Shown: positions 1 through 29,118 of the stretch, in pieces
Layout: every line of letters starts with the position of its first letter
Numbering within the stretch: the stretch's first letter is position 1
DNA from: an uncultured Acidobacteriota bacterium
GTDB lineage: Bacteria > Acidobacteriota > Thermoanaerobaculia > Multivoradales > UBA5704
Direction of reading: 5' to 3'
Assembly (NCBI GenBank): GCA_963700145.1
Contig: OY969474.1
Span: 544,001-608,000, forward strand
DNA length: 64,000 bases
Notes under the pieces: model-generated
Database searches by the model: none
Told to the model about the DNA's origin: nothing
Seen by the model: the letters and a program-made list of their open reading frames with translations, nothing else
Made by a program: the position numbers and the translations under genes

Positions 1-692
1 AGATCGCCCTGGAGCCGATCGCGCTGCCAGAGCGCGAAGTCGGCGTACTGGATGGGGAGCTCCGGCAGCGGCGAGACGTGGCCCGCGTAGAAGGCCTGGT
101 AGAGAGCGGTCAGCTCCCACGTCCAGATGCCGCTCGACCATCCGTCACAGGCGATGTGATGCAGGACGGAGAGCAGGATGTGCTCCTGCGGACCGAGTCG
201 CAGCAGCAGGTTGCGCACGAGCGGTCCGCACGCCAGGTCGAAGGGCCGCCGCAGCTCCGCGTCGACGATCCGGCGCGCCTCGGTCTCGCGCTCAGAGGGC
301 GCCAGGAGCGAGAGATCGACGAAGGGGAGCCGCGCCGGGCGGAAAGGCTGCACGCTCTGCAGAGGTTCCTCGGCGTCGGAGCGGACGACGGTGCGCAGCG
401 CTTCGTGCCGGCGCACGATCTCGTCGAGGGCGCTCTTCAGGGCCGCCGGCGCGAGGCGGCCGGTCAAGCGGAAGGGCAGAGGCACCTGATAGACGCCGCT
501 GCCGGGCTCGAGCTGCTGGAGAAACCAGACGCGGCGCTGCGCGAACGAGAGCGGCATCTGGCCGGTGCCGGGAGCCCGCCGGGGGATCGGGAAGCGCGAC
601 AGATCGATACCCTTGTCGCGCAGGATCTGAGCGAGCCGCCGGTACTGGTCGGGAGGCAGCGCGGCGATGTCGGCGGGGAGCTGCTGGCTCAT
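1..692 (-). CDS. NRPS, N-terminal condensation domain (partial, continues past left edge)
   Basis: Manual translation from ATG 692 (ATGA overlap with the upstream NRPS stop): MSQQLPADIA...PLSFAQRRVWFLQQLEP...SVLHHIACDGWS...ELPIQYADFA. Absent from the ORF track because there is no stop in the window. Confidence 0.93.
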   Translation of the reverse strand, partial: MSQQLPADIAALPPDQYRRLAQILRDKGIDLSRFPIPRRAPGTGQMPLSFAQRRVWFLQQLEPGSGVYQVPLPFRLTGRLAPAALKSALDEIVRRHEALRTVVRSDAEEPLQSVQPFRPARLPFVDLSLLAPSERETEARRIVDAELRRPFDLACGPLVRNLLLRLGPQEHILLSVLHHIACDGWSSGIWTWELTALYQAFYAGHVSPLPELPIQYADFALWQRDRLQGD

Positions 693-3600: not shown

Positions 3601-6600
3601 CCTTGAGGACGCCGAGCAGGGCGGCGACCTGCTGCGGCGCGCTCGGCAGCAGCACCGCGACGCGGCGGGCCGCCCCCAGCCCGAGCCCGAGCAGGCCGTG
3701 GGCCACGCGGTTGGCGCGCCGGTCGAGCTCGCCGTAGCTGACCTCCACCCCCTCGCAGCTCACCGCCACCACGTCTACCTGGCGGTCCACCCAGCTCTCG
3801 AAGAGGCGGTGCAGGCAGGTGTCGGGATAGAGCTCCGGCAGCCGGTGGTCCCACTGCGCGAGCAGCTGCCGCCTCTCCTCGGCATCGAGCAGCGCAACGT
3901 CCCAGAGGCGCTGATCTGGGTCCTCCACGATCCCTTCGAGCAGCAGGACGAAATGCCGGAGCATCTGCTCGATGGTCGATCTCTCAAACAGGTCCGCCGC
4001 GTACACCCCCTGGCACTCCAGCTCCTCCTCCCCAGGCGTCTCCCACAGATTGACCGTCAGGTCGAAGGTCGACATCCGATTGTCGATCTCCCAGACGCTC
4101 CAACGGACGCCGCCGGCCCGCTGCTCTCCCTCTTGGGTCGCCGGCTGGTGGAACAGCACTTGGATGAGCGGTTGTCGGCTGAGGTCGCGCTCGGGCCGCA
4201 ACGCCTCCACCAACCGCTCGAATGGCAGGTCCTGGTGGACATAGGCCTCGAAGGTAGTCTTCTTCGTCTGTGCGAGAAGCTCCCCAAAGCGAGGATGCCC
4301 GTCGAGCTGCACGCGCAACACCAGAGTGTTGACGAAGAAGCCGATCAGGGACTCGAGCTCGGGACGGTTGCGGTTGGCGATCGGACATCCCACCGCGAAG
4401 TCGTCCTGATCGGTGTACCGATGCAGCAGCGCCTCGAAGGCGGCGAGCAGCACGATGTAGAGCGTCGCTCCCGCGCGCCGCCCCAGCTCCCTCAGCCGCG
4501 CCACCAGCTCCCCGGACAGCGGCCGCGACAGCCGACCGCCGCGGTAGCTCTGCACCGCCGGCCGCGACCGGTCTGCCACCAGCTCGAGCCCCGGCAGCCC
4601 CGCGAGCTGCCCGCGCCAGTACTCGAGCTGCCTCGCCATTTCCGCCTCGCGCCCGTGCTGCCATTCGGCGAAGTCCGCGTACTGGATCGGCAGTGCCGCG
4701 AGCGGTGACGGCGCGCCCGCCACGAACGCCGCGTAGAGCGCCAGCAACTCGCCGTAGAGCACGCCGATCGACCAGCCGTCGGCCACCACGTGATGCATCG
4801 AAAGGATCAGGACGTGGTCCTCCGGCCCCAGGCGCAGGAGGAGAGAGCGGAAGAGCGGGCCACAGGTCAGAGCGAAGGGACGGCGCACCACGCCTTCGGC
4901 AACGCGGCGTGCCTCCGCCTCGCGCGCCGCACCGGACAGATCCCTCAGCTCCAACCGCGGGAGGCGCAGCGCAGCGTAGGGGGCGATTACCTGAACCGGC
5001 TGCCCGCCGGTTGCGTCGAAGGCGGTGCGTAGCACCTCATGCCGCCGGACGATCTCGTTTAGCGCACGCTCCAACGCCGCCACGTCGAGCGAGCCCCGCA
5101 GCCGCCGCGCCGTGTGCAAGTTGTACACGGCAGAGCCGGGCGCCAACTGGTCTAGGAACCACAGACGGACCTGGGCAAACGACGGGCGGGCGCGCTCTGC
5201 GGCCGGCCAGCGAGGGGCGATCGGCAACAGCGACGGATCCAGACCCTCCCGACGAAGCAGCTCCTCCGCTTGATGCGCGGTGGCGGCGATGGTGGGTGCT
5301 TCGAGGAAGCGTCGCAATGGGATCTCGACGCCGTGGCGGCTGCGGAGGCGATTGAGCACCTGGGTGGCGAGCAGGGAGTGACCGCCGAGGTCGAAGAAGT
5401 TGTCGTGGCGGCCGGCCCGTTCGATGCGCAGGACGCCCTGCCAGACCTCGGCGACGGTCTGTTCGAGCTCTGTGCGGGGGGGCTCGAAGCTGTCGGCGGC
5501 GAGCGAGTGGAGCTCGGCGGGCTTCTCCAGGGCGTGGCGGTCGATCTTGCCGCTGACCGTGCGCGGCAGCGCCGCGAGCTGGACGAAGGCGGAGGGGACC
5601 ATGGGCTCGGGCAGCCGGGCGCGCAGAAACTCCCCGAGCTGCGGCAGGGCGGCGGCGGCGAAGCCGCGCAGCGGCTTGTTGGTCAGCTCGCGCCGGTGCG
5701 CGGCGGGTGGCGGGGCAGGGAGGGCTACGGGCCGGGGGAGGGAGGGGGACTGGCCGGGTGGGCGGCTCTGCAGCACCAGGTCGAACGAGCCGTCCGCCGC
5801 GGCGCCCGTCCACAGCAACTCGACATCGTAGGGGAGCTGCGCCGCCAGGTCCCAGAGGTCGGCGGGATCGACCCAGGCCTGGGGCACCGGCTCGGCGAGC
5901 ATCTCGCGCAGGCCTCCCACGGCCTCGGGGGCACCGTCGCCGTCGAGCCAGGCCGCGGTGCGCAGCGCCTCGGCCAGGCGCGCGTTGGGCACGCCGGTGA
6001 AGCCGAGCGCCTCGGGGCGGTCGTCGACCAGGTGCCGGCGCAGGCTCTCGAGGTCCATGCCGGCGCGCCAATCGCGCCAGGCGACGTCGCGGCGCAGCGG
6101 CTGCGCCGGCTCGAGCAGCAGGATGGCGTCGTACTGGAAGCGGTTGATCTCGTTGGGGGAGTGCCCGCCCTTGGGCAGGACGCGCAGATGAGCGGGGCGC
6201 GACAGCTCGCGCACGACCTCGGCAAACAGCGCCGGGTCGATCACCAGGTCCTTGTCCTGGAGCAGGCTGTCCTCGACGCGGCGCCGCAGCTCGGCGCGGT
6301 CGAGGCGCGGGTCGGCGTGCGCGAGCTGCACCGAGGCGTGGAAGGCCCGCAGCAGCGGCAGGCTGCGCACGCCGCCGACGAAGACGGCGCCACCGGGAGC
6401 GGTAAGGCGCACCGCCTCGGCCACGGCCTCGCGCAGGTACTGCTCGTCGGGGAAGTGCTGCGTCACGAGATTGAAGACCACGGTATCGAACGAGCCGGCG
6501 GGCAGATCGCCGAGCTCGTGGGCGGCGCGGCGCTCGACGGCGACGCCCGGCAGCGGCGTCGCGAGCGCAGCGAGCCGGCGGCGCAGGAAGCCCACCGCGG

Positions 6601-9600
6601 TCTCGGAGATGTCCGTTGCGAGATAGCTGGCGCAGTGCGGAGCGACACGGAACAGCAGCAGCCCGGTGCCGGCGCCGATCTCGAGCACCCGACGGGGGCG
6701 TAGGGCGAGGATGCGCTCGACCGAGTCCTCGATACTCTCGAGCACCTCCGGCTCGGGCAGGGCGCGGTGCGTGTAGCTGCTGGTCCAGGAACGGGTGTTG
6801 ATATTGCCGTCGACCGCGGAATAGGCCGGATCGAGGGCGTAGATCTCGTCGTAGAGGCTGCGGGTCTGCTCGATGTAGTCGGCGCGCAGGCCGGCGCCGT
6901 CCCCCGGACCGAGCGAGCCCAGCGGGTCCAGCGCCACGTAGGCCACCAGACGCAGGTCGCCCTGGCCGTAGTCGTGGGCCGCCACCGCCGCCTCCTCGAC
7001 CGCTGGGTGGCAGCGCAGGGCGGTCTCGATCTCGCCCAGTTCGACGCGGTTGCCGCGCACCTTGACCTGCTGGTCGCGGCGGCGTAGGAAGACGAGACTG
7101 CCGTCGGGAAGCCAGCGTCCCAGGTCGCCGGTACGGTAGAGCCGCCCACCGGCACCGCCCAGCGCGTCGGGCACGAAGCTCGCCGCCGTCTCGGCCGGCC
7201 GGTCGAGATAGCCGTCGGCCAGGTGCGCGCTGCGGATGTGGATCTCGCCCGGCACCCCGCGCGGGGCCGGTTGGCCATGGCGGTCGAGCAGCACGACGTG
7301 CCGGCCCTCGAACGCACGGCCCACCGGAACCGAGGCCTGGCGGCGGTCCGCCACCAGCACCGGATGCCAGGTGGCGAGCACCGTCTCCGACGGACCGTAG
7401 AGGTTGAACAGGCGCGGCGTCGTGGGGAAGCGCTCGCGCCAAGAGATGGCCAGCTCGCCGCGCACTGCCTCGCCCGCCAGCAGCAGGGCGGCGAGAGCCG
7501 GGAAGGGATGACCGCCGCCGCCATCGCCCAGGCTCTGCAGGAGCTGCTGCGCGAAGCTCGGCACGACCTGCAGCAGCGTCACCTGCTCGGCGCAGAGCCA
7601 GACCGCCAGGGCCGCCGGGTCGAACCGCAGCGACGGCTCGGCCATGCACAGCGTCGCCCCGAGGCAGAGCGCGCCGAAGATCTCGCAGTAGGACGCGTCA
7701 TAGCCGCACGAGGCCCACTGTGCGAAGCGCTGGTGCGGCGCGATGGCGAAGGGCTTGCCCTGGCAGAGCACGAACTGACTGAAGCTGCGGTGGGACTCGA
7801 CGATCCCCTTGGGCCGGCCGGTGGAGCCGGAGGTGTAGGCGACGTAGGCGGGCTGGGCCGGGTCGACCTCCACCAGCGGCCGGGTCGCGGGCAGCGCATC
7901 GAACCCCGCGAGGTCCACGACTGGCCAGTCGCCGCCCTCGGCGAGCGCCGGGTGCTGGCGCAACGACGAGGCGTCGGTCAGCAGCGCGCCGGCCGAGGCC
8001 TCGGCCAACACCTGCGCGAGCCGCGCGGTGGGCTGGCGCGGGTCGAGGCAGACGAAGGCGCAGCCGGCCTTGAGGACGCCGAGCAGGGCGGCGACCTGCT
8101 GCGGCGCGCTCGGCAGCAGCACCGCGACGCGGCGGGCCGCCCCCAGCCCGAGCCCGAGCAGGCCGTGGGCCACGCGGTTGGCGCGCCGGTCGAGCTCGCC
8201 GTAGCTGACCTCCACCCCCTTGCAGCTCACCGCCACCACGTCTGCCTGGCGGTCGGCCCAGCTCTCGAAGAGGCGGTGCAGGCAGGTGTCGGGATAGAGC
8301 TCCGGCAGCCGGTGGTCCCACTGCGCGAGCAACTGCCGCGTCTCCTCGGCATCGAGCAGCGCAATCTCCCAGAGGCGCCGCTCCGGGTCCGCGACGATGC
8401 CCTCAAGCAGCAGGACGAAGTGCCGCAGCATCTGCTCGACCGTCGACCCCTCGTAGAGGTCCGCCGCGTACACCCCCTGGCACTCCAGCTCCTCCTCCCC
8501 AGGCGTCTCCCACAGATTGACCGTCAGGTCGAAGGTCGACATCCGATTGTCGATCTCCCAGACGCTCCAGGTGAGGCCCGCGGTTTGCCGTTCCTCCTGC
8601 GAAACGGACTGGAGGTGGAACAGCACCTGGACGAGCGGCTGACGGCTGAGGTCGCGCTCGGGCCGCAACGCCTCCACCAGCCGCTCGAACGGCAGGTCCT
8701 GGTGAGCGTAGGCCTCGAAGGTGGTCTTCTTGACCTCGTCGAGGAGCTCGGCGAACCGCGGGTGCCCCGCGAGCTGCGCGCGCAGGACGAGCGTGTTGAC
8801 GAAGAAGCCGATCAGGGGCTCGAGCTCGGGACGGTTGCGGTTGGCGATTGGACATCCCACCGCGAAGTCGTCCTGATCGGTGTACCGATGCAGCAGCGCC
8901 TCGAAGGCGGCGAGCAGCACGATGTAGAGCGTCGCTCCCGCGCGCCGCCCCAGCTCCCTCAGCCGCGCCACCAGCTCCCCGGACAGCGGCCGCGACAGCC
9001 GGCCGCCGCGGTAGCTCTGCACTGCCGGCCGCGAGCGGTCCGCCACCAGCTCCAGCCCGGGCAGCCCCGCGAGCTGCCCGCGCCAGTAGTCGAGCTGCGC
9101 CGCCATCTCCGCCTCGCGCCCGTGCTGCCACTCGGCGAAGTCCGCGTACTGGATCGGCAGCTCCCGGAGCGGTGACGGCGCGCCCACGACGAACGCCGCG
9201 TAGAGCGCCAGAAGCTCGCCGTACAGCACGCCGATCGACCAGCCGTCGGCCACGACGTGGTGCATTGCCAGGATCAGGACGTGGTCGTCCACCGCCAAGC
9301 GCAGCAGCAGAGGTCGGAACAACGGCCCGCGGCTCAGCGCGAAGGGACGCCGCACCGCGCCTTCGGCGACCCGCCGCGCCTCCGCCTCGCGCGCCCTGGC
9401 CGGGAGCCCCCAGAGGTCGAACCGCGGCAGGCGCAGCGCCGCGTGCGGCGCGACCACCTGCACCGGCTGCCCGCCGGTTGCATCGAACGCGGTGCGCAGG
9501 ACCTCGTGGCGCCGCACCACCTCGTCGAGGGCACGCTCCAACACCGCCACGTCGAGCGAGCCCCGCAGACACCGCGCCGTGTGCAGGTTGTACACCGGCG

Positions 9601-9805
9601 AGCCCGGCGCCAACTGATCCAGGAACCACAGACGGATCTGGGCAAAGGACGCCCGAGCACGCTCCCCGCCCGACTCCCGCCGCGGAATCGGCAGCAGCGA
9701 CGGATCCAGCCCCTCCCGACGCAGCAGCTCCTCCAGCAGGCGGCGCTTGTCGCCGGCAAGAGCGCTCGGGGTCGTCGGCGTTCGGTTGGTGAGCTCGCCG
9801 CGCAT
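689..9805 (-). CDS. Bimodular NRPS C-A-nMT-T-C-A-nMT-T (~3038 aa)
   Basis: Two copies each of HHVVADGWS, YTSGSTGRPKG, LYRTGDL, VLEIGAGTG (SAM-binding MT inserted in A), SGKIDR and FFDLGGHSLLA. True start is ATG 9805 (MRGELTNR), overlapping the MIO-gene stop (TGATG). Confidence 0.95.
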   Translation of the reverse strand: MRGELTNRTPTTPSALAGDKRRLLEELLRREGLDPSLLPIPRRESGGERARASFAQIRLWFLDQLAPGSPVYNLHTARCLRGSLDVAVLERALDEVVRRHEVLRTAFDATGGQPVQVVAPHAALRLPRFDLWGLPARAREAEARRVAEGAVRRPFALSRGPLFRPLLLRLAVDDHVLILAMHHVVADGWSIGVLYGELLALYAAFVVGAPSPLRELPIQYADFAEWQHGREAEMAAQLDYWRGQLAGLPGLELVADRSRPAVQSYRGGRLSRPLSGELVARLRELGRRAGATLYIVLLAAFEALLHRYTDQDDFAVGCPIANRNRPELEPLIGFFVNTLVLRAQLAGHPRFAELLDEVKKTTFEAYAHQDLPFERLVEALRPERDLSRQPLVQVLFHLQSVSQEERQTAGLTWSVWEIDNRMSTFDLTVNLWETPGEEELECQGVYAADLYEGSTVEQMLRHFVLLLEGIVADPERRLWEIALLDAEETRQLLAQWDHRLPELYPDTCLHRLFESWADRQADVVAVSCKGVEVSYGELDRRANRVAHGLLGLGLGAARRVAVLLPSAPQQVAALLGVLKAGCAFVCLDPRQPTARLAQVLAEASAGALLTDASSLRQHPALAEGGDWPVVDLAGFDALPATRPLVEVDPAQPAYVAYTSGSTGRPKGIVESHRSFSQFVLCQGKPFAIAPHQRFAQWASCGYDASYCEIFGALCLGATLCMAEPSLRFDPAALAVWLCAEQVTLLQVVPSFAQQLLQSLGDGGGGHPFPALAALLLAGEAVRGELAISWRERFPTTPRLFNLYGPSETVLATWHPVLVADRRQASVPVGRAFEGRHVVLLDRHGQPAPRGVPGEIHIRSAHLADGYLDRPAETAASFVPDALGGAGGRLYRTGDLGRWLPDGSLVFLRRRDQQVKVRGNRVELGEIETALRCHPAVEEAAVAAHDYGQGDLRLVAYVALDPLGSLGPGDGAGLRADYIEQTRSLYDEIYALDPAYSAVDGNINTRSWTSSYTHRALPEPEVLESIEDSVERILALRPRRVLEIGAGTGLLLFRVAPHCASYLATDISETAVGFLRRRLAALATPLPGVAVERRAAHELGDLPAGSFDTVVFNLVTQHFPDEQYLREAVAEAVRLTAPGGAVFVGGVRSLPLLRAFHASVQLAHADPRLDRAELRRRVEDSLLQDKDLVIDPALFAEVVRELSRPAHLRVLPKGGHSPNEINRFQYDAILLLEPAQPLRRDVAWRDWRAGMDLESLRRHLVDDRPEALGFTGVPNARLAEALRTAAWLDGDGAPEAVGGLREMLAEPVPQAWVDPADLWDLAAQLPYDVELLWTGAAADGSFDLVLQSRPPGQSPSLPRPVALPAPPPAAHRRELTNKPLRGFAAAALPQLGEFLRARLPEPMVPSAFVQLAALPRTVSGKIDRHALEKPAELHSLAADSFEPPRTELEQTVAEVWQGVLRIERAGRHDNFFDLGGHSLLATQVLNRLRSRHGVEIPLRRFLEAPTIAATAHQAEELLRREGLDPSLLPIAPRWPAAERARPSFAQVRLWFLDQLAPGSAVYNLHTARRLRGSLDVAALERALNEIVRRHEVLRTAFDATGGQPVQVIAPYAALRLPRLELRDLSGAAREAEARRVAEGVVRRPFALTCGPLFRSLLLRLGPEDHVLILSMHHVVADGWSIGVLYGELLALYAAFVAGAPSPLAALPIQYADFAEWQHGREAEMARQLEYWRGQLAGLPGLELVADRSRPAVQSYRGGRLSRPLSGELVARLRELGRRAGATLYIVLLAAFEALLHRYTDQDDFAVGCPIANRNRPELESLIGFFVNTLVLRVQLDGHPRFGELLAQTKKTTFEAYVHQDLPFERLVEALRPERDLSRQPLIQVLFHQPATQEGEQRAGGVRWSVWEIDNRMSTFDLTVNLWETPGEEELECQGVYAADLFERSTIEQMLRHFVLLLEGIVEDPDQRLWDVALLDAEERRQLLAQWDHRLPELYPDTCLHRLFESWVDRQVDVVAVSCEGVEVSYGELDRRANRVAHGLLGLGLGAARRVAVLLPSAPQQVAALLGVLKAGCAFVCLDPRQPTARLAQVLAEASAGALLTDASSLRQHPALAEGGDWPVVDLAGFDALPATRPLVEVDPAQPAYVAYTSGSTGRPKGIVESHRSFSQFVLCQGKPFAIAPHQRFAQWASCGYDASYCEIFGALCLGATLCMAEPSLRFDPAALAVWLCAEQVTLLQVVPSFAQQLLQSLGEDDGNHPFPALAALLLAGEAVRGELAASWLERFPATPRLYNLYGPSETVLATWHPVLVADRRQASVPVGRAFEGRHVVLLDRHGQPAPRGVPGEIHIRSAHLADGYLDRPAETAASFVPDALGGAGGRLYRTGDLGRWLPDSSLVFLRRRDQQVKVRGNRVELGEIETALRCHPAVEEAAVAAHDYGQGDLRLVAYVALDSLGSLGPGDGAGLRTDYIAQTRSLYDEIYALDPAYSAVDHNINTRSWTSSYTHRALPEAEVLESIDDSVARILALRPGRVLEIGAGTGLLLFRVAPHCASYLATDISETAVGFLRRRLASLVPPLPGVAVERRAAHELGDLPDGSFDTVVFNLVTQHFPDEQYLRDAVAEAVRLTAPGGAVFVGGVRSLPLLRAFHASVQLAQAADPRLGRAELRRRVEDSLLQDKDLVIDPALFAEVVRELPRPAHLRILPKGGRSPNEINRFQYDAILLLEPALPARRDVAWRDWRAAGMDLESLRRHLADGRPEALGFTSVPNARLAEALRTAAWLDGDGAPETVGDLRQALAQPPPRDWVDPANLWDLTAQLPYSVELLWTGAAANGSFDLVLQSRPPGQSPSLPRPVALPAPPPAAHRRELTNKPLRGFAAAALPQLGEFLRARLPEPMVPSAFVQLAALPRTVSGKIDRHALEKPAELHSLAADSFEPPRTELEQTVAEVWQGVLRIERAGRHDSFFDLGGHSLLATQVLNRLRSRHGVEIPLRRFLEAPTIAATARQMEESRAAVRDEDLAIAQILAEARSELDHEVQGLLR
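800..9735 (-). repeat. Tandem direct duplication of a whole NRPS module, period ~4.47 kb
   Basis: Same sequence at 808 and 5281 (offset 4473). Identical shadow ORFs 3112..3432 and 7579..7899 (offset 4467). EELLRREGLDPSLLPI occurs at both module starts. Confidence 0.93.
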
Positions 9806-11319
9806 CAAGACAGTTCCCGCACCCAACGACCCGCGCTCGCGCTGAACAGCTCCCGGGCGGCCTCGATGTCGGTGCTCATCACCCGGTCCTCTTCCAGGAA
9901 CGGGATACGCGCGCGCAGCTCGCGGAATACCTCTTCGGTGGCCGGCGAAAGCCGCAGTGGCTCGTTGAGATCGATGGCCTGGCAGGCGGTCATCAGCTCG
10001 ATGCTCATGACGTACTCGCAGTTGTCGAGGATCTGAGCCAGCTTGTGGGCGGAGGTCCCGCCCATGCTGACGTGGTCCTCCTGGAGCTGGCAGGTGGGAA
10101 TCGTGTCGACGCAGGCCGGCGTGGAGAGGACTTTGTTCTCGTTGACCAGCGCGGCCGACGTGTACTGGGAGATCATGAGCCCGGAGTTGATCCCTGGCCG
10201 CTTCACCAGGAAACTCGGTAGGCCGCGCTGTCCCGACAGGAGCTGATACGTCCGCCGCTCGGAAATGCTCGCCAGCTCGCTGATCGCCATGCAGGCAAAG
10301 TCGAGCACCAGCGCCGTCGACTCGCCGTGCAGGTTGCCGCCGAACAGAACCTCGTCCTGCTCGGGGAAGAACAGTGGGTTGTCGGAGACGCTGTTGCACT
10401 CCCGCTCGACCACCTCGCGGGCGAAGCCGACGGCTTGGCGTATGGCGCCGTGGATCTGGGGAATGCAGCGGAAGGAGTAGGGGTCCTGCATCGACTGGTT
10501 GCAGGTCGGCAGCTCGAAGTGGTTGCTTCCCGCCAGCAGCGAGCAGAGGTTGCCCGCCACCACCCGGCGCTCTTCGTGGAGAGAGGTGGTGTGGTAGAGC
10601 GGGTGATAGAAGGTGCGCGAGGCGCTGAACGCTTGGATGCTCAGTGCCGCCAGCAGGTCGGCGGCCTTGGACAGCAGCGCGCCGCGATCCAGGGCGTGGG
10701 CGGCCCAGCCGTTGATGTACTGCACGCCGTTGGTCAGGGCCAGACCCTCCTTGGGCCGCAGGCGCAAAGGCTCCCAACCCATGGCGGGCAGTACGTCACG
10801 GGCATCCTCGACGCGGCCTTGGAAGTGGACTCGCCCCAGTCCCAGCAGCGGCAACGCCATATGGGCCAGGGGCGCCAGATCGCCGCTGGCGCCGACGGTT
10901 CCCTTCTTCGGGATCGCCGGGATCACGCCGCGGTTCCAGTGCTCCAGCAGGCGCTCGACGGTCGGTCGCGAGATGCCGGTGTGACCGCTGCGGAAGGTGA
11001 GGAGCTTCACCAGCAGGACGAGGCGCGAGATCCTCTCGGGCACCAGCTCTCCGACCCCGCAGGCGTGGGACACCACGTGGTTGTACTGCAGCCGCTCCAT
11101 CTCCCCCGCCGGGACCCGGGTCTCGCAGAGCGAGCCGAAGCCGGTGTTGACGCCGTAGAGGTAACGGTCCTCCGCGGCCTTGGCGTCGACGAAGCGGGCA
11201 CCGCCGTCGATGCTGTCGGCGACCTCCGGGGAGAGCCGCAGCTCGGGCGGGTCCTCGGCGAGGCGGCAGAGCTCGTCGATCGAGTAGCGATGCAGATCGA
11301 TGAGATGAGTCGTGGCCAT
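9805..11319 (-). CDS. MIO-dependent aromatic amino acid lyase/aminomutase with histidine-type (HAL-like) signatures
   Basis: YGVNTGFG loop, GTVGASGDLAPL (ASG forms MIO), VVSHACGVG, QDPYSFRC, QEDHVSM. Start ATG 11319 (MATTHL). Confidence 0.9.
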   Translation of the reverse strand: MATTHLIDLHRYSIDELCRLAEDPPELRLSPEVADSIDGGARFVDAKAAEDRYLYGVNTGFGSLCETRVPAGEMERLQYNHVVSHACGVGELVPERISRLVLLVKLLTFRSGHTGISRPTVERLLEHWNRGVIPAIPKKGTVGASGDLAPLAHMALPLLGLGRVHFQGRVEDARDVLPAMGWEPLRLRPKEGLALTNGVQYINGWAAHALDRGALLSKAADLLAALSIQAFSASRTFYHPLYHTTSLHEERRVVAGNLCSLLAGSNHFELPTCNQSMQDPYSFRCIPQIHGAIRQAVGFAREVVERECNSVSDNPLFFPEQDEVLFGGNLHGESTALVLDFACMAISELASISERRTYQLLSGQRGLPSFLVKRPGINSGLMISQYTSAALVNENKVLSTPACVDTIPTCQLQEDHVSMGGTSAHKLAQILDNCEYVMSIELMTACQAIDLNEPLRLSPATEEVFRELRARIPFLEEDRVMSTDIEAARELFSASAGRWVRELS

Positions 11320-11335: not shown

Positions 11336-13594
11336 CTACGGCGCACCTTCGCCGCTCGTCACGGGCGCGTCGGCGTTCTCCGCTCGCTGTCCTTCGAGGA
11401 ACGCCTTGACCTCCTCCGCCGACAGTCTGGCGACCAGCTCGGCCAGCCGCTCGACGCGGCCGGCGTCGGCGACCGGTTTGCCCGTCGCCGCGAGGTGCCG
11501 GGCGAGCCGGGCCGGGCTCGGATGCTCGAAGAGACGGTGGGCATTGATCGAGACGTGCAGCCTCTGGCCCAGACGCGAGACGATCTGAGTCGCGAGCAAG
11601 GAGTCCCCGCTCAGCTCGACGAAGTCGTCGTGAACCCCGACCGGCGTGAAGCCGAAAACCTCCTGCCAGGCGGCGACGATCTGCGTCTCCATCTCGTTCC
11701 GAGGTGCCGTGTAGGGAGTCGACAGGGACGGGCGCGGGCGCGCTCCGGGCGCCGCGACGTTCGCCGCCACCGCGGTGGCATCCGGAGCGGAGCGCGCCGC
11801 GGGCGGGGACTGCACCTCGTAGCGCTGGCGCTGGAAAGGATAGGTGGGAAGCGGTATGCGCCGGCGGCGCCGGCCGGCATGGCGGCGCGCGAAATCGACG
11901 TCGGCTCCCGCGACCCAGAGATAGCCGAGGCTGGCGAGGTCCTCCGACGCCTCGGTGTCCGCGGGCAGCGTCGCGACGGCGACCGTGGCCTGGCCGAGGT
12001 CCTGCGCCAGGGCGGGCAGGTGCCGCGCTCTGACTTCGCCGTTCAGCATGCGAGCGGCGTCGTCGAGGACTGCGCCGAGGCCGGCGGTGTCGCGGTATAC
12101 CGCGGCGCGCCGGCGGCCGAAAGCCCGGCGCCCCGTCTGCAGCGTGTACGCGAGGTCCGACGGATCGACCTCCGGGTGAAGCTCCAGATGGCGCCGTAGA
12201 CGTCGCGTCATCTCTTCGAGGGCCGCGTCGTCGCGGGCCGACAGGACCAGGAGGTGCCATGAGTCCACGGCCGTCGCGGCCTGCTGCGCGGGAGCTTCTT
12301 CGAGGACGACGTGGGCGTTGGTGCCGCCGACGCCGAACGAGCTGACGCCGGCGCGGCGGGGAGAGGCGACGGCCGGCCATGCGGAAAGTCTCGCGTTGAC
12401 GAAGAACGGGCTGTCCTCGAGCGAGATGTCCGGGTGGAGGGACTCGAAGTGGAGGACGGGCGGCAGCTCGCGATGCTCGAGAGCGAGCGTGGCCTTGATG
12501 AGGCTGGCGATGCCCGCAGCCTCGTCCAGGTGTCCCACGTTGGGTTTGCTCGAGCTGAGGGCGCAGAACCCTCGCGCCGCGGTGGAAAGGCGGAACGCGC
12601 GGGTCAGGGCGGCGACCTCCATCGCGTCCCCGAGCGGTGTGCCGACGCCGTGCGCCTCGACGTAACCGATCGTCTCCGCGGGGATCCCGGCGGCGCCGAG
12701 CGCCAGGGTGACGACCTCCGCCTGGCCTTCGACGCACGGGGTGGTGAACCCCGGCTTGCCCGCCCCGTCGTTGTTCACGGCCGAGCCGCGGATGACGGCG
12801 CGTATCGGGTCGCCGTCGGCGACGGCGTCGGAGAGGCGCTTGAGGAGGACCAGCCCGGCCCCGTTGCCGTGGACGGTGCCCACCGCCCGCCGGTCGAAGG
12901 GGCGGCAGCGGCCGTCCGGCGAGAGGGAGAGACCCTCGCGGTAGAGATAGCCCCGCGGCTGCGGGAAGAAGATGGAGACACCTCCGGCCAAGGCCATGTC
13001 GCAGTGGTAGTCGAGCAGGCTCTGACACGCGAGGTGAACGGCGACCAGAGAGGTGGAGCAGGCGGACTGGAGGGCGATGCTGGGCCCCCGCAGGTCGAGC
13101 TTGTAGGAGAGGCGCGCCGTCAGGCTGCCGCCGTCCACCAGGGCCAGCGGTCCTTCCAGGAGCTCCAGCTTCTGCTCGAGCGACATCCGGCTCTCCAGGT
13201 AGGTACTCGGGCCTGCGCCGGCGAACACGCCGATGGCGCCCGCGTAAGCGGCGGGGTCGTAGCCGGCGCTCTCGAGCGCTTCCCAGGCGCACTCCAGGAT
13301 CAAGCGGTGCTGGGGATCGAGCATCTCCGCTTGGCGGGGCGGGATGCCGAAGAAGGGGGCGTCGAACAGAAGGGGGTCCTCGAGCACTCCTCCGGCTTTG
13401 ACGTAGTCGCTCCGCGCGAGCAGCTCGCGGCGGACGCCGGCCGCCGCCAGCTCGGAGTCGCTGAAGAAGCTGATGGACTCCACGCCGTCGCGCAGATTCC
13501 GCCAGAACGTCTCGGGGTCCGACGCTCCGGGGAAGCGGCAAGCCATGCCGATGATGGCCACGCCCTCCAGCGCCGCTTCCGAAGCGCTGTTCAT
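11336..13594 (-). CDS. Type I PKS module KS-ACP lacking an AT domain
   Basis: VAIIGMACRFPG, QSACSTSL (Cys), EAHGVGT and NVGHL (His, His), SSFGVGGTNAH, LPTYPFQRQRY linker, LSGDSLLA carrier. No GHSxG AT motif; only 752 aa. Confidence 0.9.
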   Translation of the reverse strand: MNSASEAALEGVAIIGMACRFPGASDPETFWRNLRDGVESISFFSDSELAAAGVRRELLARSDYVKAGGVLEDPLLFDAPFFGIPPRQAEMLDPQHRLILECAWEALESAGYDPAAYAGAIGVFAGAGPSTYLESRMSLEQKLELLEGPLALVDGGSLTARLSYKLDLRGPSIALQSACSTSLVAVHLACQSLLDYHCDMALAGGVSIFFPQPRGYLYREGLSLSPDGRCRPFDRRAVGTVHGNGAGLVLLKRLSDAVADGDPIRAVIRGSAVNNDGAGKPGFTTPCVEGQAEVVTLALGAAGIPAETIGYVEAHGVGTPLGDAMEVAALTRAFRLSTAARGFCALSSSKPNVGHLDEAAGIASLIKATLALEHRELPPVLHFESLHPDISLEDSPFFVNARLSAWPAVASPRRAGVSSFGVGGTNAHVVLEEAPAQQAATAVDSWHLLVLSARDDAALEEMTRRLRRHLELHPEVDPSDLAYTLQTGRRAFGRRRAAVYRDTAGLGAVLDDAARMLNGEVRARHLPALAQDLGQATVAVATLPADTEASEDLASLGYLWVAGADVDFARRHAGRRRRRIPLPTYPFQRQRYEVQSPPAARSAPDATAVAANVAAPGARPRPSLSTPYTAPRNEMETQIVAAWQEVFGFTPVGVHDDFVELSGDSLLATQIVSRLGQRLHVSINAHRLFEHPSPARLARHLAATGKPVADAGRVERLAELVARLSAEEVKAFLEGQRAENADAPVTSGEGAP

Positions 13595-16500
13595 GCAGGG
13601 CTCCGGGAGAGTTGCGGCGGGCGCCGGCGGAGCCTTGCCTCGCGCTGCCTGGCGGCCCTCGCCAGCGCCGCCGGGAGCTGCGAGCCGGCGAGTGCCCCCG
13701 GCGCCGGCGAAGCCTCCAGATAGGCGGCGAGGGACTCGATCGTCGGTTGCTCCAGCAGCTCCAGCATCGACAGCTTGCGGCCGAGCCTCGCGGCGATGTG
13801 GGACCGCACCCGGGCCAGGAGCAGAGAGTGACCGCCGAGGTCGAAGAAGCTCTCCGCCGTGCTCACCTCCGGCAGCTCCAGCACCTCCATCCAGATGCCG
13901 GCCAGCGCCGTCTCGACGGCGCCCTGCGGCGGCGAGGGGGGGCGCGCGTAGAGCGGGCGTGCACTCGCAACCGGTAGCGCGCGGCGGTCGACCTTGCCGT
14001 TAGGAGTCAGCGGCAAGGCGTCGAGCGGCACGAACAGCGCCGGCAGCATGTAGTGCGGCAACCGCTGCCGGAGGAAGTCCCGTAGCTCGTCGGTGGCCGG
14101 AGGCTCATCACCCTTCTCGGCGACCAGGTAGGCGATCAGGCGCCGACCGCCGCCCGCGTCGTCGGCGGTGACGACCGCGGCCTGGACGACAGCCGGATGC
14201 GCGACCAGGGCGGACTCGATCTCGCCGAGCTCGATGCGGAAGCCGCGGACCTTGACCTGGCGGTCCGTGCGGCCCAAGAACTCCAGCCTGCCGTTGGGCC
14301 GGTAGCGGGCTCGGTCACCGGTGCGATAGAGGCGCGCTCCGGGTTCGCCGCCGAGCGGGTGCGGGACGAACGCCGCCGCCGTCAGATCGCCACGCCCGAG
14401 ATAGCCTCGCGCCAGCCCCTGACCGCCGATGTAGAGCTCGCCCGGCACTCCCAGCGGCGCGAGCGCGAGCCCGTCGTCGAGAACGAGGAGGGAGGTGTTG
14501 GCGACGGGCCCCGCCACCGGCACCGGACCCGCGCCGCGCTCCACGCGGTGGGCCGCCGACCAGATCGTGGTTTCGGTGGGCCCGTAGAGGTTCCAGAGGC
14601 TCTCGCCGCGGCTCGCCAGCGCCTCGGCGAGCTCGCGCGGAAGCGCCTCACCGCCGCACAGCAGCCGCAGGCCTGGCCGGCCCGACCAGCCGGCCTCGAG
14701 GAGCAGGCGCCAGGTGGCGGGCGTACCCTGCAGGACCGTGGCGCCGCTCTCCTCGAGGAGAGCGGCGAGACGGCCGCCGTCGCCGGCTTCGTCGGCGCGG
14801 GCCAGCACCACGCGTGCCCCGACGCTCAGCGGGAGAAAGAGCTCCAGGCCGGCGATGTCGAAGCTCGGCGTCGTCACCGCCAGCAGGACGTCGCCAGGCG
14901 TGAGCCCCGGCCGCTCGGCCATCGAGCCGAGGAAGCTCACCACGGCGCGGTGCACGATCTCGACCCCCTTGGGCGTTCCCGTGGAGGCCGAGGTGTAGAT
15001 CACGTAGGCCCGGTGGTCGGCTCCCGCCCCACCGTCATGGTGGGAGTCGCTCCAGGCCGCCACGGCCGCGGCATCGGAGTCCAGGCAGACCCGGCGGTGT
15101 GCTCCGGGGAGGCCCGCGAGGCGGCTCTCGGTGATCAGGACGGCGTTGCGGGAGTCCACGAGCATGTGCTCGACGCGGTGCCGCGGATACCCGGGATCGA
15201 TGGGGACGTAGGCGCCTCCCGCCTTGAGCACGCCGAGCAGCGCCACGAGCAGCTCGAGGGAGCGCTCAAGGCAGACGCCGACGAGGACGTCCGGCCCGAC
15301 GCCGAGAGACCGTAGATGGCGTGCCAGCCGGTTGGCCCGGCGGTCCAGCTCACCGAAGGTGAGGCACGCGTCGGCACAGGCCGCGGCCACGGCGTCGGGG
15401 CGGCGGCGAGCCTGGTCCTCGAAGAGCTGATGCAGGCAGTCGGGCCGCGGTCCGACCACCGCGGTGTCGCTCCACTCCGTCAGGAGCTGGTGCTGCTCGG
15501 CCTGGCTCAGGAGCGCGAGCTCCTGGATGCTCACCTCCGGCTGGGCGATGGCGCTCTCCAGAAGGCGTTGGTACTGAGCCGCCAGGCGGGCGACGGTCGG
15601 CGGCGCAAAGAGATCGGTGCTGTACTCCCACTCGAGGAGGGTCTGCTCGTCCTCGGCCCGTGGGACACGGCCGATGCGCTGCTCCGAGCGCGGTGTCACG
15701 ATGACGTTGAGGTCGAACTTGGCCGAGCCGTTGTGCGGATATTCGATGCGTCCGCTCAGCTCCCCGAAGTCCAGGTCCGGCATCGGAGCGTCGTGGAAGC
15801 TGAACATCACCTGGAAGATCGGGTTGAAGCTCGCGTGACGCTCCGGCCGCAGCTCCTGGACCAGACGATCGAAGGGAAGGTCCTGGTGGGCGAAGGCCTC
15901 CAAGGTGACCTGGTGGACACGGGCCAGCACCTCACGGAACGAGGGGGTGCCCGACAGATCGACGCGCAAGGCCAGGTTGTTGATGATCATGCCGAGGATG
16001 CGCTCGGTCTCACGCCGCCGCCGTCCGGCGACCACCGTACCCACCACCAGGTCGGCGCTGCCGTTGTAGCGGTGGAGGAGGGCGTCGAACGCCGCCAGGA
16101 GCACCATGAACGGAGTGGCGCCGCAGCGGCGGCCGAGCTCGCGGGCCGACGTGAAGAGACCGGGTCGCATCGGTTCCTTGTGGACGGCGCCGCGGAAGCT
16201 CTGCGCCGCGGGCCGCGGGGCGTCGGAGGGGAGCTCGGTCACTCCCGGGATGCCTGCCAGCTTCCGTTTCCAGTACTCGAGCTGCAGGGCGGCGGCTGCG
16301 CTCTGGAGCCACTCCCGCTGCCAGACGGCGTAGTCGGCGAACTGCAACGGCAGCTCCGGCAGCGGAGAGGCGGAGCCGGAGGAGATGGCGCGATACAGCT
16401 CTTCGATCTCACCGAGCAGCAGAGCCATCGACCAGCCGTCGTGGAGAAAATGGTGCTCGACCTGGACCAGCAGGTGCTCGCGCGGGCCGAGGCGCAGCAG

Positions 16501-18822
16501 GCTCCAGCGCACGAGCGGCAGGCGCGTCACGTCGAAGCCGGAGCGGCAGTCCGCGCGGAGCAATCTCGTTTCCTCGGTCGCGCGCGCGGGCCCGGGCAGG
16601 CCCGCCAGGTCGACCACCGGCAGGCGCGGGAGCCACGGCGAGTGAAGGCGCTGGAAAGGCTGGCCGTCTTCGCTCGGGAACGAGGTGGCGAGGATCTCGT
16701 GCCGCGCCACGACCTCGGCCAGCGCCACGCGCAGCGCCGCCACGTTCAAGCCACCCGAGAGGCGCACCGTCACGTAGGCGTTGTAGGCGACGTTCGCGGG
16801 GGAGACCTGCTCGAGGAACCAGACGCGCTCCTGTGCGGACGACAGCGGCAGCCGGCCGGTGCGGGGAACGCGCCGCAGCGGCTGACCGTCCGCATGCTCC
16901 GGGGACTCCGGTGCCTGCGCTACGCGGGCGGCGAGCTCGGCCACCGTGGAGTTGCCCAGCAGGATCTCGGCGGGCAGCGCGACCGACAGGCGCTCCCGAA
17001 TCCGGCTCGCCACCTGGGCGGCCATCAGGGAGTGACCGCCCAGCTCCAGGAACCCGTCGTGGACGCCGACCGGACCGCAGCCGAGGAGGTCCTCCCAGAT
17101 CCCTGCCACCAGACTCTCCACCGGGGTCTCCGGCGCCAGGTAGGGGCGGCCGAGGTCACCTCGGGTCCGCGTTGGAGCGGGCAGCGCGCTGCGGTCGATC
17201 TTGCCTGCCGGCGTCAGGGGCAGCTCGTCGAGGAAGCGGAAGGACGCGGGCACCATGTAGGGCGGCAGCTCTCCGGCGACGAAAGCGCGCAGGTCGGCGA
17301 GGTCCGGCCGGCGCTCGCGCGCCACCAGATAGGCCACCAGGCGGAGCGAGCCCGGCACGTCCTCCCACCCGACCACCACCGACGCGGCCACGTTCGGGTG
17401 CCGTAGGAGGACCGACTCCACCTCCGCCGGCTCGATCCGGAAGCCGCGGATCTTGAGCTGGCGATCGGCGCGCCCGAGGAACTCGAGGTTGCCGTCGGGG
17501 AGGCGCCGTGCGAGGTCACCGCTGCGGAACAGCCGCGCCCCGGGGACGGTAGCGCGAGGATCGGGCACGAAGCTGGCGGCGGTGAGGTCGGGGCGGCGCA
17601 GGTAGCCCCGAGCGACACCGGCGCCGCCGAGGTAGAGCTCGCCCGTCGCGCCGTCAGGAAGCGGGTGCAGGTCGGCGTCCAGCACGTGCGCCGCGACGTT
17701 GGCGATCGGTCTGCCGATCGGGACGGATCGGCGGAGGCCTTCCGGTTCGCTCCCCTCCTCCTCCTCCCACACCGTGGCGGTGACCGTGCCCTCGGTGAGA
17801 CCGTAGGCGTTGAGCCAGCGGACGCGGTGCCCCACCGTGCGGCGCCAGAGCTCGAGCTGCTGCGGCAGCACGCGCTCGCTCCCCACGACGACCAGGCGCA
17901 GGCTCTCGGGCCAGGGCAGGGCGGTGCGCCCGATTTCCGAGGCCCAGCCGTGCCAGTACGGGGCAGGCAGGTTGAGGACGGTGAGCGCCTGCGCGCGGGC
18001 AAGCTCCACCATCGCCGCCACGGAAGTCGCCGCCGCGGCGGAGCGCAGTACGACGGCGCTGCCGCTCAGCCAGGAGGGGAAAATCTCTTCCACGGAGACG
18101 TCGAAGCCGATGGCGGCGAACTGAAGGACCCGATCGGCCGGAGAGAGGCAGTATCGGGTAGCGATGGCGTAGCTCAGGTTGAGGAGAGCCCGGTGGGGCA
18201 CCGCGACGCCTTTGGGCACGCCGGTGGAACCGGACGTGAAGATGACGTAGGCGAGGTTCGATGGGCCGGCACCCCCACTGGGCAAGCTGTCCGGACGTCC
18301 CGCGATCGCCTCCCGGTCCCAGTCGACGCGGACCAGAGGCGGCCCGCCCGTGCCGCCGGCCCACGTCGAGGCCGTGACGACCGCCGCCGGCTTCGCCTCG
18401 TCCAGGATCGCCGCGAGGCGTCGCGGCGGCATGGCAGGGTCCAGCGGCAGGTATGCCGCGCCCGCCGCGAGGATGCCGAGGATCGCGACGAAGAGCTGCG
18501 GCGAGGGAGGGAGGCAAACTCCGACCAAGGTCTCGGGGCCCACGCCGAGTGTTTGCAGATGGTGGGCCAGACGATTGGCGCGGCACACCAGCTCCGCATA
18601 GCTCAGGTGATGGTCGTCGCAGACCAGCGCGACGGCGTCGCCCGCCTCGGCCGCTAGAGCGGCGATGAGCTCGTGCACGCACCGGTCCGCAGGGACAGGG
18701 GTTGCCGGACCGTTCGAGAGGTTGGCCTGGTAATGGCCGGCACGCCGGGAAGCGGTCCGATGCTCGCCGCTGGGAAGTTGGGAGCTACCTTCCTCGAGCG
18801 TTCGCGAGCCATCTTGTTCCAC
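13591..18822 (-). CDS. Initiating NRPS A-T-C-A-T (A1 basic-residue-like, A2 Gly-like); start uncertain
   Basis: A1 FTSGSTGVPKG/FDVSVEE, T LGGHSLMA, C EHHFLHDGWS, A2 FDIAGLEL...YGPTETTIWS, T LGGHSLLL. In-frame GTG at 18822 follows a G-rich RBS-like tract; the ORF track extends to 18981. Confidence 0.9.
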   Translation of the reverse strand: MEQDGSRTLEEGSSQLPSGEHRTASRRAGHYQANLSNGPATPVPADRCVHELIAALAAEAGDAVALVCDDHHLSYAELVCRANRLAHHLQTLGVGPETLVGVCLPPSPQLFVAILGILAAGAAYLPLDPAMPPRRLAAILDEAKPAAVVTASTWAGGTGGPPLVRVDWDREAIAGRPDSLPSGGAGPSNLAYVIFTSGSTGVPKGVAVPHRALLNLSYAIATRYCLSPADRVLQFAAIGFDVSVEEIFPSWLSGSAVVLRSAAAATSVAAMVELARAQALTVLNLPAPYWHGWASEIGRTALPWPESLRLVVVGSERVLPQQLELWRRTVGHRVRWLNAYGLTEGTVTATVWEEEEGSEPEGLRRSVPIGRPIANVAAHVLDADLHPLPDGATGELYLGGAGVARGYLRRPDLTAASFVPDPRATVPGARLFRSGDLARRLPDGNLEFLGRADRQLKIRGFRIEPAEVESVLLRHPNVAASVVVGWEDVPGSLRLVAYLVARERRPDLADLRAFVAGELPPYMVPASFRFLDELPLTPAGKIDRSALPAPTRTRGDLGRPYLAPETPVESLVAGIWEDLLGCGPVGVHDGFLELGGHSLMAAQVASRIRERLSVALPAEILLGNSTVAELAARVAQAPESPEHADGQPLRRVPRTGRLPLSSAQERVWFLEQVSPANVAYNAYVTVRLSGGLNVAALRVALAEVVARHEILATSFPSEDGQPFQRLHSPWLPRLPVVDLAGLPGPARATEETRLLRADCRSGFDVTRLPLVRWSLLRLGPREHLLVQVEHHFLHDGWSMALLLGEIEELYRAISSGSASPLPELPLQFADYAVWQREWLQSAAAALQLEYWKRKLAGIPGVTELPSDAPRPAAQSFRGAVHKEPMRPGLFTSARELGRRCGATPFMVLLAAFDALLHRYNGSADLVVGTVVAGRRRRETERILGMIINNLALRVDLSGTPSFREVLARVHQVTLEAFAHQDLPFDRLVQELRPERHASFNPIFQVMFSFHDAPMPDLDFGELSGRIEYPHNGSAKFDLNVIVTPRSEQRIGRVPRAEDEQTLLEWEYSTDLFAPPTVARLAAQYQRLLESAIAQPEVSIQELALLSQAEQHQLLTEWSDTAVVGPRPDCLHQLFEDQARRRPDAVAAACADACLTFGELDRRANRLARHLRSLGVGPDVLVGVCLERSLELLVALLGVLKAGGAYVPIDPGYPRHRVEHMLVDSRNAVLITESRLAGLPGAHRRVCLDSDAAAVAAWSDSHHDGGAGADHRAYVIYTSASTGTPKGVEIVHRAVVSFLGSMAERPGLTPGDVLLAVTTPSFDIAGLELFLPLSVGARVVLARADEAGDGGRLAALLEESGATVLQGTPATWRLLLEAGWSGRPGLRLLCGGEALPRELAEALASRGESLWNLYGPTETTIWSAAHRVERGAGPVPVAGPVANTSLLVLDDGLALAPLGVPGELYIGGQGLARGYLGRGDLTAAAFVPHPLGGEPGARLYRTGDRARYRPNGRLEFLGRTDRQVKVRGFRIELGEIESALVAHPAVVQAAVVTADDAGGGRRLIAYLVAEKGDEPPATDELRDFLRQRLPHYMLPALFVPLDALPLTPNGKVDRRALPVASARPLYARPPSPPQGAVETALAGIWMEVLELPEVSTAESFFDLGGHSLLLARVRSHIAARLGRKLSMLELLEQPTIESLAAYLEASPAPGALAGSQLPAALARAARQREARLRRRPPQLSRSPA

Positions 18823-19028
18823 GCAAAAACCCCCTGGACGGAGCTTATCAACATCCTGCGATATTCGGAACGTTGGAGGAACGCAGCAACGCAGCACCTC
18901 ACTTGAGGGTAGGTGCGCCCCAGGATATTCTCGATAGCTGGGTGAAGAATCAGCGAGACCGGGTGGAGCAGATGCGGTCACCGGAGCCGATCGCCGACAT
19001 CGAACGAGCCGTCAAGGAGTGAGGAGCC

Positions 19029-21111: not shown

Positions 21112-21128
21112 CGCTTTCTCCCGCCCGG

Positions 21129-21344: not shown

Positions 21345-21375
21345 TCGCTCTGTTTCCTTCTTTCCTGACATCTTG

Positions 21376-21630: not shown

Positions 21631-21635
21631 CCGCG

Positions 21636-29048: not shown

Positions 29049-29118
29049 GGCGCGGCATCGTACCGCGCGGTCGCCGGGGCCCTCGTCGGGCGCCATGTGC
29101 GAAGATCGACGACGGAGC

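Follow-up and report, generated by a model that had tools for sequence, protein, structure and literature searches.

The known aminomutases that carry the 4-methylideneimidazole-5-one (MIO) cofactor act on phenylalanine, tyrosine and close analogues, and the tyrosine aminomutase (TAM) SgTAM pairs with SgcC1, an adenylation enzyme dedicated to β-tyrosine. In the habitasporin clusters, according to the part of the report accessible to us, a lone aminomutase gene beside a nonribosomal peptide synthetase (NRPS) supplies β-phenylalanine (PMC9802438). Histidine enters an assembly line in another form in the imidacin pathway of Stigmatella aurantiaca, where the available text describes urocanate as the starter of a polyketide synthase (PKS), admitted by a loading adenylation (A) domain, with the histidine ammonia-lyase (HAL) encoded far from the cluster (PMC11301661). 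The lack of a histidine aminomutase has been a point of discussion (PMC9002059). Here we describe a HAL-type MIO gene of an uncultured Acidobacteriota bacterium (GCA_963700145.1), a candidate histidine 2,3-aminomutase that is very probably biosynthetic and serves NRPS modules with the pocket code D-A-C-Q. The window analysed is a stretch of 64,000 nucleotides from contig OY969474.1 (C1:544001-608000), and the genome consists of this one contig of 5.46 Mb. The features on which the argument rests are the following, where C, T and N-MT denote condensation, thiolation and N-methyltransferase domains.

9805..11319, minus strand: gene of the HAL-type MIO enzyme, 504 aa
10882..10890, minus strand: codons of the MIO triad Ala144-Ser145-Gly146, computed from residue numbers
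689..9805, minus strand: NRPS gene D, C-A(N-MT)-T-C-A(N-MT)-T, 3038 aa, exactly two modules
7181..7864, minus strand: specificity-pocket core of the first A domain of NRPS D (D-A1), code DACQLALLA, Asp235 kept
2714..3397, minus strand: specificity-pocket core of the second A domain of NRPS D (D-A2), code DACQLALLA

The MIO gene runs from an ATG at 11319..11317 to a TGA at 9807..9805, with a GGAG motif 10-13 nt 5' of the ATG and the TAG of the upstream gene at 11338..11336. Its stop codon and the start codon of NRPS D overlap in TGATG, base 9805 being common to both, as the original prediction had described. The Ala-Ser-Gly triad (residues 144-146) lies inside GTVGASGDLAPLAH, and the motifs VVSHACG (residues 82-88) and QEDHVSM (residues 413-419) are present as it had listed them. 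The catalytic tyrosine of the lid loop, Tyr55, sits in YGVNTGFG, and Ser84-His85, Asn197, Gln278, Tyr281, Arg284 and Glu414 are kept as well. The protein matches the Pfam family Lyase_aromatic (PF00221) at 554.9 bits, its residues 13-469 aligning with positions 2-465 of the 466-position profile, and is therefore a full-length family member and no chance motif match. The triad is predicted to form the MIO cofactor.

By its sequence, the enzyme is of the histidine type. Its best matches in the PDB are the histidine ammonia-lyases 6v6h and 1gkm (348 bits, full length), compared with 257.6 bits for the tyrosine aminomutase 2ohy. It passes the NCBIfam model NF006871 for a histidine ammonia-lyase subfamily (557.6 vs cut-off 524), misses the hutH equivalog TIGR01225 (534.9-535.3 vs cut-off 539.15 bits) and falls below the tyrosine 2,3-aminomutase model TIGR03832 (341.4 vs cut-off 501 bits), its motif being QEDHVSM and not of the NQD type. 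Seven of the eight residues in the active-site list of Pseudomonas putida HAL (Tyr53, His83, Asn195, Gln277, Tyr280, Arg283, Phe329 and Glu414) are kept, Phe329 being replaced by Leu330. The enzyme thus departs from HutH proper in four respects, namely the equivalog score, the Phe329 site, its position in the tree and its genomic context, and it departs from the tyrosine aminomutases too. The claim that motifs mark the histidine type needs to be divided: QEDHVSM versus NQDVVSM does separate HAL-type from TAM-type enzymes in the aligned rows, but the Ser-His pair is not specific to HAL, because the solved structure of SgTAM (2ohy/2rjr) reads ..RSHSAG.. at this site, and the pair as an exclusive HAL marker was rejected.

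The genome has its own housekeeping genes for histidine utilization. A canonical hutH lies at C1:1344449 and scores 696.5-696.9 bits against the equivalog cut-off of 539.15; the cluster enzyme is 45% identical to it. Over the whole genome, the sole strong hutU match is at C1:302294 and the sole hutI match above the cut-off is at C1:3722827. No hutU, hutI or hutG was detected in the 64-kb window, in line with the original prediction, and the best hutG-like match in the genome (68.7 bits, below the cut-off) is at C1:1181472. A canonical hutH also accompanies the NRPS-linked gene in four of the five other genomes tested (677-703 vs 513-556 bits), and the fifth, Mycolicibacterium neoaurum, has the NRPS-type paralogue only. 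Among 40 relatives of the source genome, from the same genus to the same order, no orthologue of the cluster MIO gene was found, the best matches showing 40-45% identity. A sole, catabolic hutH was accordingly rejected, given the separate canonical hutH, hutU and hutI and the NRPS context in relatives, and the concern raised by the original prediction that the gene might be the genome's only hutH is removed.

Relatives of the enzyme were collected by scanning one genome per species with peptide patterns from the query. The scan yielded 51 loci (52-91% identity) in Acidobacteriota, Chloroflexota, Gemmatimonadota, Myxococcota, Actinomycetota, Pseudomonadota, Bacteroidota, Rhodothermota, Calditrichota, KSB1 and Eremiobacterota; the nearest is in an Acidobacteriota metagenome-assembled genome, with 91% identity and the same neighbours. 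The best 120 database proteins are 63-90% identical to the cluster enzyme and come from many phyla. In the phylogeny proposed earlier as a check (67 rows, a quick search without bootstrap that omits L072-L076 as the same genes as L042, L036, L015, L039 and L031), the 52 NRPS-linked sequences form one distinct clade with a Shimodaira-Hasegawa-like approximate likelihood ratio (SH-aLRT) of 100 and a stem of 1.4 changes per column. This clade is sister to the canonical HutH of four genomes, and a node with support of 98 unites it with every one of the five canonical HutH rows and with two more rows from Streptomycetaceae, 59 in total, the tyrosine aminomutases falling outside. Derivation of the clade from HAL, separate from canonical HutH, is thus strongly supported by the sequence comparison. 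In the same tree, a Streptomyces genome that holds a clade member contributes a third, very divergent MIO gene (G003:C8:349897-351471, L077) with 451 bits to hutH, the motifs Y-H and NQDKVSM and a very long branch.

The residues fixed in the clade are those of a histidine enzyme with changes of its own. Tyr53, His83, Asn195, Gln277, Tyr280, Arg283 and Glu414 (P. putida numbering) are kept throughout; in the accessible part of the source, these are the positions at which mutation cripples HAL, mutants of Geobacillus kaustophilus HAL at the equivalents of Glu414 and His85 are described as inactive on histidine, and the Phe329Ala exchange in the P. putida enzyme is given as a 100- to 2200-fold loss of activity (PMC11432326). 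At every aligned motif that differs between HAL and TAM (QDPYS, M-I and QEDHVSM), the clade has the HAL state. Its own fixed changes are Leu for Phe329, LALTNGVQ around Asn195, a GFGSLC lid loop and C-Q-L before Q-E-D, which correspond in the cluster enzyme to the clade-specific residues Leu330, Thr196, Val199, Cys65 and Cys410-Gln411-Leu412. Leu occupies the Phe329 site in all 51 loci and in 116 of the best 120 database relatives, among which NGVQ is found in 120/120 and GFGxLC in 116/120. The position eight residues after the catalytic tyrosine of the lid loop, Glu in SgTAM, was considered as a mutase signature and is uninformative, the clade having Ser or Ala there and the canonical HutH rows being variable.

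The genomic context of the clade is uniform. An NRPS A domain lies within 10 kb of the HAL-type gene in 50/51 loci, and hutU or hutI is found nearby in 0/51; at the single locus without an A domain (L037), the DNA stops about 300 bases past the gene. Together with the separate canonical hutH and the NRPS-linked clade, these counts strongly support the biosynthetic role that had been proposed. The smallest clusters are the most informative. In Kangiella, the operon at L031:9989-20231 consists of the HAL-type gene, an A-T-C-A-T gene and a C-A-T gene, flanked by tyrS, a peptidase gene and anmK, and in an Ardenticatenaceae locus (L014), the HAL-type gene follows cell-wall genes and is followed by NRPS genes only. 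No stand-alone acyl ligase is conserved in these two minimal clusters. The HAL-type enzyme is the sole conserved non-NRPS gene product, and its product must therefore be an NRPS substrate.

The A domains of these loci were compared by reading nine pocket positions in every A domain of the 51 loci. Within the fetched flanks, a partner A domain of one clade accompanies the HAL-type gene in 47/51 loci. The code DACQLALLA, shared by both A domains of NRPS D, occurs in 23 of the 51; DVCQ.V.AA is found in 11 actinomycete and gammaproteobacterial loci, DA(C/S)EMSEL. in 8 loci of Streptosporangiaceae and Amycolatopsis, and other related codes in 5. In Chromobacterium vaccinii (L039), a DACQLALLA domain further upstream in the same operon makes a 48th locus. 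In two of the last three, the contig ends directly past the gene, and the third offers an upstream flank of only 4.4 kb. Although the core is only 50.7% identical between the A domains of Kangiella and those of this genome, all nine pocket residues agree. As a negative control, 79 unrelated metagenomic NRPS loci (1.22 Mb), with 262 A domains between them, contained a single DACQLALLA domain, which lay in the sole locus with a HAL-type gene (69% identity). These control loci came from a metagenome scan with the A domain, partly with generic peptide patterns, and hold mostly unrelated A domains (36-47% identity). The proposed supply of the two downstream modules and the suggested co-occurrence with A domains in other genomes are both borne out by these counts.

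Other features of the partner A domains speak for an amine-bearing substrate. Asp235 is kept in all partner codes and Lys517 in the A domains of NRPS D, whereas Asp235 is absent from other A domains of the same loci (VAWLTSLN. in 15 loci and IDTLISSAG in 2). A C domain directly precedes the partner A domain in 20 of 49 cases, including both in NRPS D, and in these cases the substrate therefore needs an amine, which argues against urocanate. Nor can two identical successive modules both take an amine-free acid. In the deep actinomycete subclade, the paired A domains have Glu at positions 278 and 322, and such a pocket would fit a basic ring, as expected. One member of this subclade, L053 (Amycolatopsis sp. 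PS_44_ISF1, Scaffold_003), branches deeply, and its neighbours are stand-alone A domains whose pockets are rich in Glu (DACEMSELA). The strain is that of the pachycephalamides and demiguisin, and the accessible part of the report mentions neither histidine nor a lyase nor MIO (PMC11446937); as a cultured strain, it would allow the deep subclade to be tested.

In trees from which 42 near-duplicate rows of 17 loci were left out (139 -> 97 rows), the partner A domains and three TAM-adjacent A domains lie on one side of one branch (35 vs 63 rows) with a moderate SH-aLRT of 91-92. The TAM-adjacent codes are DPAQLAL.. in gene E of the present operon, DPAQLML.A in G213 (Streptomycetaceae) and DAAQLALLA in G767 (same phylum as the source), the last being one residue apart from DACQLALLA. 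Position 239 is Cys in 40/47 HAL-linked loci and Ala in 3/3 TAM-linked ones. A further TAM locus, G171, was left out since its match is at a contig end, and a search of 301 genomes of the Myxococcota sample gave no further TAM anchor at E <= 1e-148. As a separate observation, a C-A-T module follows the DACQ module about 5.3-6.7 kb past the HAL-type gene in 15 loci (L008-L011, L013, L014, L016, L017, L019, L020, L023, L025, L029, L031 and L035). Its A domain has the code VAWLTSLN. without Asp235, falls into a group with the IDTLISSAG domains that two Mycolicibacterium loci carry, and may take a β- or ω-amino acid.

From the family, clade, residues, gene order, co-occurrence and domain order observed here, we infer histidine as the substrate, β-histidine over urocanate as the product and the partner A domain as its acceptor. 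In the proposed mechanism, the HAL-derived, NRPS-linked MIO enzyme would take free L-histidine, most likely as a histidine 2,3-aminomutase, and the MIO group would carry the amine from Cα to Cβ of the bound urocanate intermediate to give β-histidine. NRPS D, whose translation is coupled to that of the enzyme, would adenylate β-histidine with its two dedicated A domains (DACQLALLA plus Lys517), the embedded methyltransferases would N-methylate the β-histidine units, and the unit would be built in twice in succession, giving a hybrid peptide-polyketide. Each MIO enzyme of the operon would feed its own β-aryl-β-amino acid, the TAM supplying β-tyrosine to a sister A domain and the HAL-type enzyme β-histidine. 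We put the probability that the product is β-histidine at about 55%. The original prediction had named β-histidine or urocanate, and the upstream C domains, Asp235, Lys517 and the TAM-linked A-domain clade favour the former. The wider proposal, to which we give roughly even odds, is that the whole HAL-derived branch is made up of histidine 2,3-aminomutases, was distributed over ten or more bacterial phyla by gene transfer and, with the co-inherited A domain (D-A/V-C-Q...), defines a large unstudied class of β-histidine nonribosomal peptides.

The described systems each share part of this arrangement. With canonical HutH (1gkm/1b8f, 6v6h; TIGR01225), a sister lineage, the cluster enzyme shares the MIO triad, the lid Tyr, the Ser-His pair, the Asn, the Gln/Tyr/Arg set and Q-E-D-H-V-S-M; it differs by Leu for Phe329, NGVQ instead of NGTQ, the lid-loop Cys and C-Q-L before Q-E-D, by scoring below the equivalog cut-off in a separate clade, and by standing in NRPS operons while co-existing with a canonical hutH. 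SgTAM offers the proposed working analogy: it is an MIO enzyme of a biosynthetic cluster, has a Ser-His pair and is paired with a member of the same A-domain clade, but it is distant in score (257.6 bits to 2ohy), has NQDVVSM for QEDHVSM and is matched by a pocket with Ala, not Cys, at position 239. The pairs of tyrosine aminomutase and A domain in enediyne and other pathways would likewise be alike in working, the present enzyme being HAL-descended and not of the TAM lineage. In habitasporin biosynthesis, as far as the accessible text describes it, the single conserved MIO gene (HabB) next to the NRPS HabA similarly supplies a β-aryl amino acid to an internal module; HabB is of phenylalanine aminomutase (PAM) type and acts on Phe (PMC9802438). 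The imidacin pathway shares the entry of a histidine-derived imidazole unit into an assembly line and the use of HAL chemistry for secondary metabolism, and differs, in the portion available, by its distant HAL gene and its urocanate starter, whereas here the gene is in the operon and the modules are C-A-T elongation modules (PMC11301661).

Several points weigh against a histidine aminomutase. Sequence alone cannot tell a lyase from a mutase in this family; we know of no signature that parts MIO mutases from lyases, and bacterial PAM and phenylalanine ammonia-lyase (PAL) reportedly show thermal bifunctionality, to judge from the title of a reference. To our knowledge, β-histidine has not been recorded in any natural product. 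The locus search relied on query-derived patterns and could have missed clade members in other contexts. The pocket positions follow what we take to be the GrsA convention; Gly-like and Ala-like codes are recognisable under it, and the last two positions are off by one in some rows. The branch that joins the partner and TAM-adjacent A domains lies below the tool's star level of support, an A domain was present in the fetched DNA at 3/6 TAM loci (own, G213 and G767; not G300, G181 and G891), and adjacency is the ground for assigning β-tyrosine to these three anchor A domains. Lastly, a Stigmatella sp. holds a clade member at 68% identity, so that lyase activity within the clade is possible; the accessible imidacin text does not name which Stigmatella HAL paralogue made urocanate in vitro (PMC11301661).

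One alternative is that the gene encodes a dedicated histidine ammonia-lyase, whose urocanate would be taken up by the assembly line as an acyl group, in the manner of the imidacins. We consider this unlikely. In its favour, all HAL catalytic residues are kept, the NF006871 cut-off is passed, and 29 of the 49 partner A domains occupy a loading position without a C domain, where a urocanate starter is chemically possible; in the available text, the imidacins prove such a starter in a myxobacterium (PMC11301661). The imidacin HAL, however, is there encoded away from its cluster (PMC11301661). The C domain that precedes the partner A domain here and in 18 further cases calls for an amine acceptor, an acid without an amine cannot serve both of two consecutive identical modules, and Asp235 is kept in all partner codes while absent from other A domains of the same loci. 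Moreover, the minimal clusters conserve no stand-alone acyl ligase, and Phe329, for which the accessible source gives the 100- to 2200-fold loss on exchange to Ala, is Leu across the clade (PMC11432326).

That same Leu330, together with the invariant substitutions Thr196, Val199, Cys65 and Cys410-Gln411-Leu412 in the active-site region, could instead point to a changed substrate, with the clade acting on Tyr, Phe or methylated or otherwise modified His, as a mutase or a lyase. The Ser-His pair of the tyrosine aminomutase 2ohy and the single residue that separates the partner pocket from a TAM-linked one lean in this direction, and we nevertheless rate it as rather improbable. The clade equals HAL wherever HAL and TAM differ in the alignment, including Glu414 and His85, whose equivalents in G. 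kaustophilus HAL are described in the accessible text as indispensable for activity on His (PMC11432326). Because the operon already has a bona fide TAM (516.6 vs 501 bits) with its own A domain, a second enzyme for Tyr would be redundant, and both the Cys239 of 40/47 HAL-linked loci (Ala in 3/3 TAM-linked) and the two pocket Glu of the deep subclade, which fit a basic ring, speak for another substrate than that of TAM. Finally, a redundant catabolic hutH paralogue lying among NRPS genes by chance would explain the high similarity to HAL families, and we find it barely credible in view of the one-base translational coupling to the NRPS, the NRPS linkage across phyla (50/51, with hutU/hutI in 0/51), the co-inheritance with one A-domain clade, the long stem of the separate clade and the orthologue count of 0/40 in relatives of the genome.

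For the histidine aminomutase, no precedent was found in the literature. In the main text of open PMC papers and bioRxiv preprints (supplements and subscription journals aside), neither a histidine aminomutase nor HAL genes linked to NRPS genes nor a natural product containing β-histidine was reported, and searches with the pocket codes returned unrelated peptide matches only; the branch is apparently undescribed. A paper on turnagainolide proposes, in its accessible part, that a HAL-annotated gene acts on Phe (PMC12094020). If the proposal is true, both the enzyme activity and its product β-histidine, a non-proteinogenic building block that binds metals and responds to pH, would be new. It would also give genome mining a simple handle, namely a HAL-type gene that carries Leu at the Phe329 site together with an A domain whose pocket reads D-A-C-Q, and this handle would mark a family of uncharacterised peptides in Chloroflexota, Acidobacteriota, Gemmatimonadota, Myxococcota, Actinomycetota, Pseudomonadota and others. 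With clusters of just three genes, as in Kangiella sp., the question would be directly testable in Escherichia coli. Even if the enzyme were a lyase, its close association with a single type of A domain would amount to a new use of histidine in assembly lines.

The MIO gene is part of a translationally coupled series on the minus strand that comprises NRPS A, the ketosynthase-acyl carrier protein (KS-ACP) gene B, the MIO gene, NRPS D, NRPS E, a second MIO gene, the NRPS/PKS gene G and two further NRPS genes. The remaining members are listed here (AT, acyltransferase).

13591..18981, minus strand: NRPS gene A, A-T-C-A-T; loading A domain with code DVENVGATA, second A domain with a Gly-like code
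11336..13594, minus strand: PKS gene B, KS-ACP without an AT domain; stop 16 nt before the MIO gene
1..692, minus strand: 5' part of NRPS gene E, C-A-T; A code DPAQLAL.., ATG overlapping the NRPS D stop (ATGA)
C1:539639-541225 (= L005:15639-17225), minus strand: second MIO gene, tyrosine aminomutase, about 2.8 kb beyond window base 1 in the same operon
L005:2967-15626, minus strand, outside the window: gene G, NRPS/PKS of 4220 aa in which NRPS modules flank a KS-AT-ACP-aminotransferase (class III) module

NRPS A is probably the first gene of the assembly line. The two modules of NRPS D are near duplicates with A cores 97.8% identical in protein, which points to a recent tandem duplication of the module, and the interrupted A domains align to the N-methylating A domain 5wmm over their whole length, the Lys of motif A10 being kept. 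NRPS E continues past the window start to C1:541249 and is followed by the second MIO gene, which passes the tyrosine 2,3-aminomutase equivalog TIGR03832 (516.6 vs 501 bits), has 2ohy/2rjr as its best PDB match and carries the motifs T-H and NQDVVSM. The order in the operon is thus HAL-type MIO gene, two DACQ modules, DPAQ module and TAM. The layout of gene G would build a β-amino acyl unit in-line, which would give the cluster a third, different route to β-amino acids. Of the two NRPS genes after gene G, the last one ends in a thioesterase.

Just upstream of the first NRPS gene is an open reading frame of 742 aa (19417-21645, minus strand) without a Pfam match, and beyond it a protein of 1016 aa (22662-25712, minus strand) combines a β-propeller with a prolyl-oligopeptidase (S9) domain. 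Each may be part of the cluster, perhaps with a role in resistance or in processing of the product. The window from 26 to 64 kb holds housekeeping genes. Gene calls are uncertain at 25700-31400, where the GC content is 0.76-0.78 and long frames overlap on both strands; this part includes a 1016-aa plus-strand frame without a Pfam match (25711-28758) and, from 28801, a clear hybrid histidine kinase. At 40549-48005 lie genes for a multicopper oxidase, an RND pump of AcrB/CusA type and a CusB-like membrane-fusion protein that carries a heavy-metal-binding domain; they resemble a locus for copper or silver efflux and seem to have no connection with the cluster.

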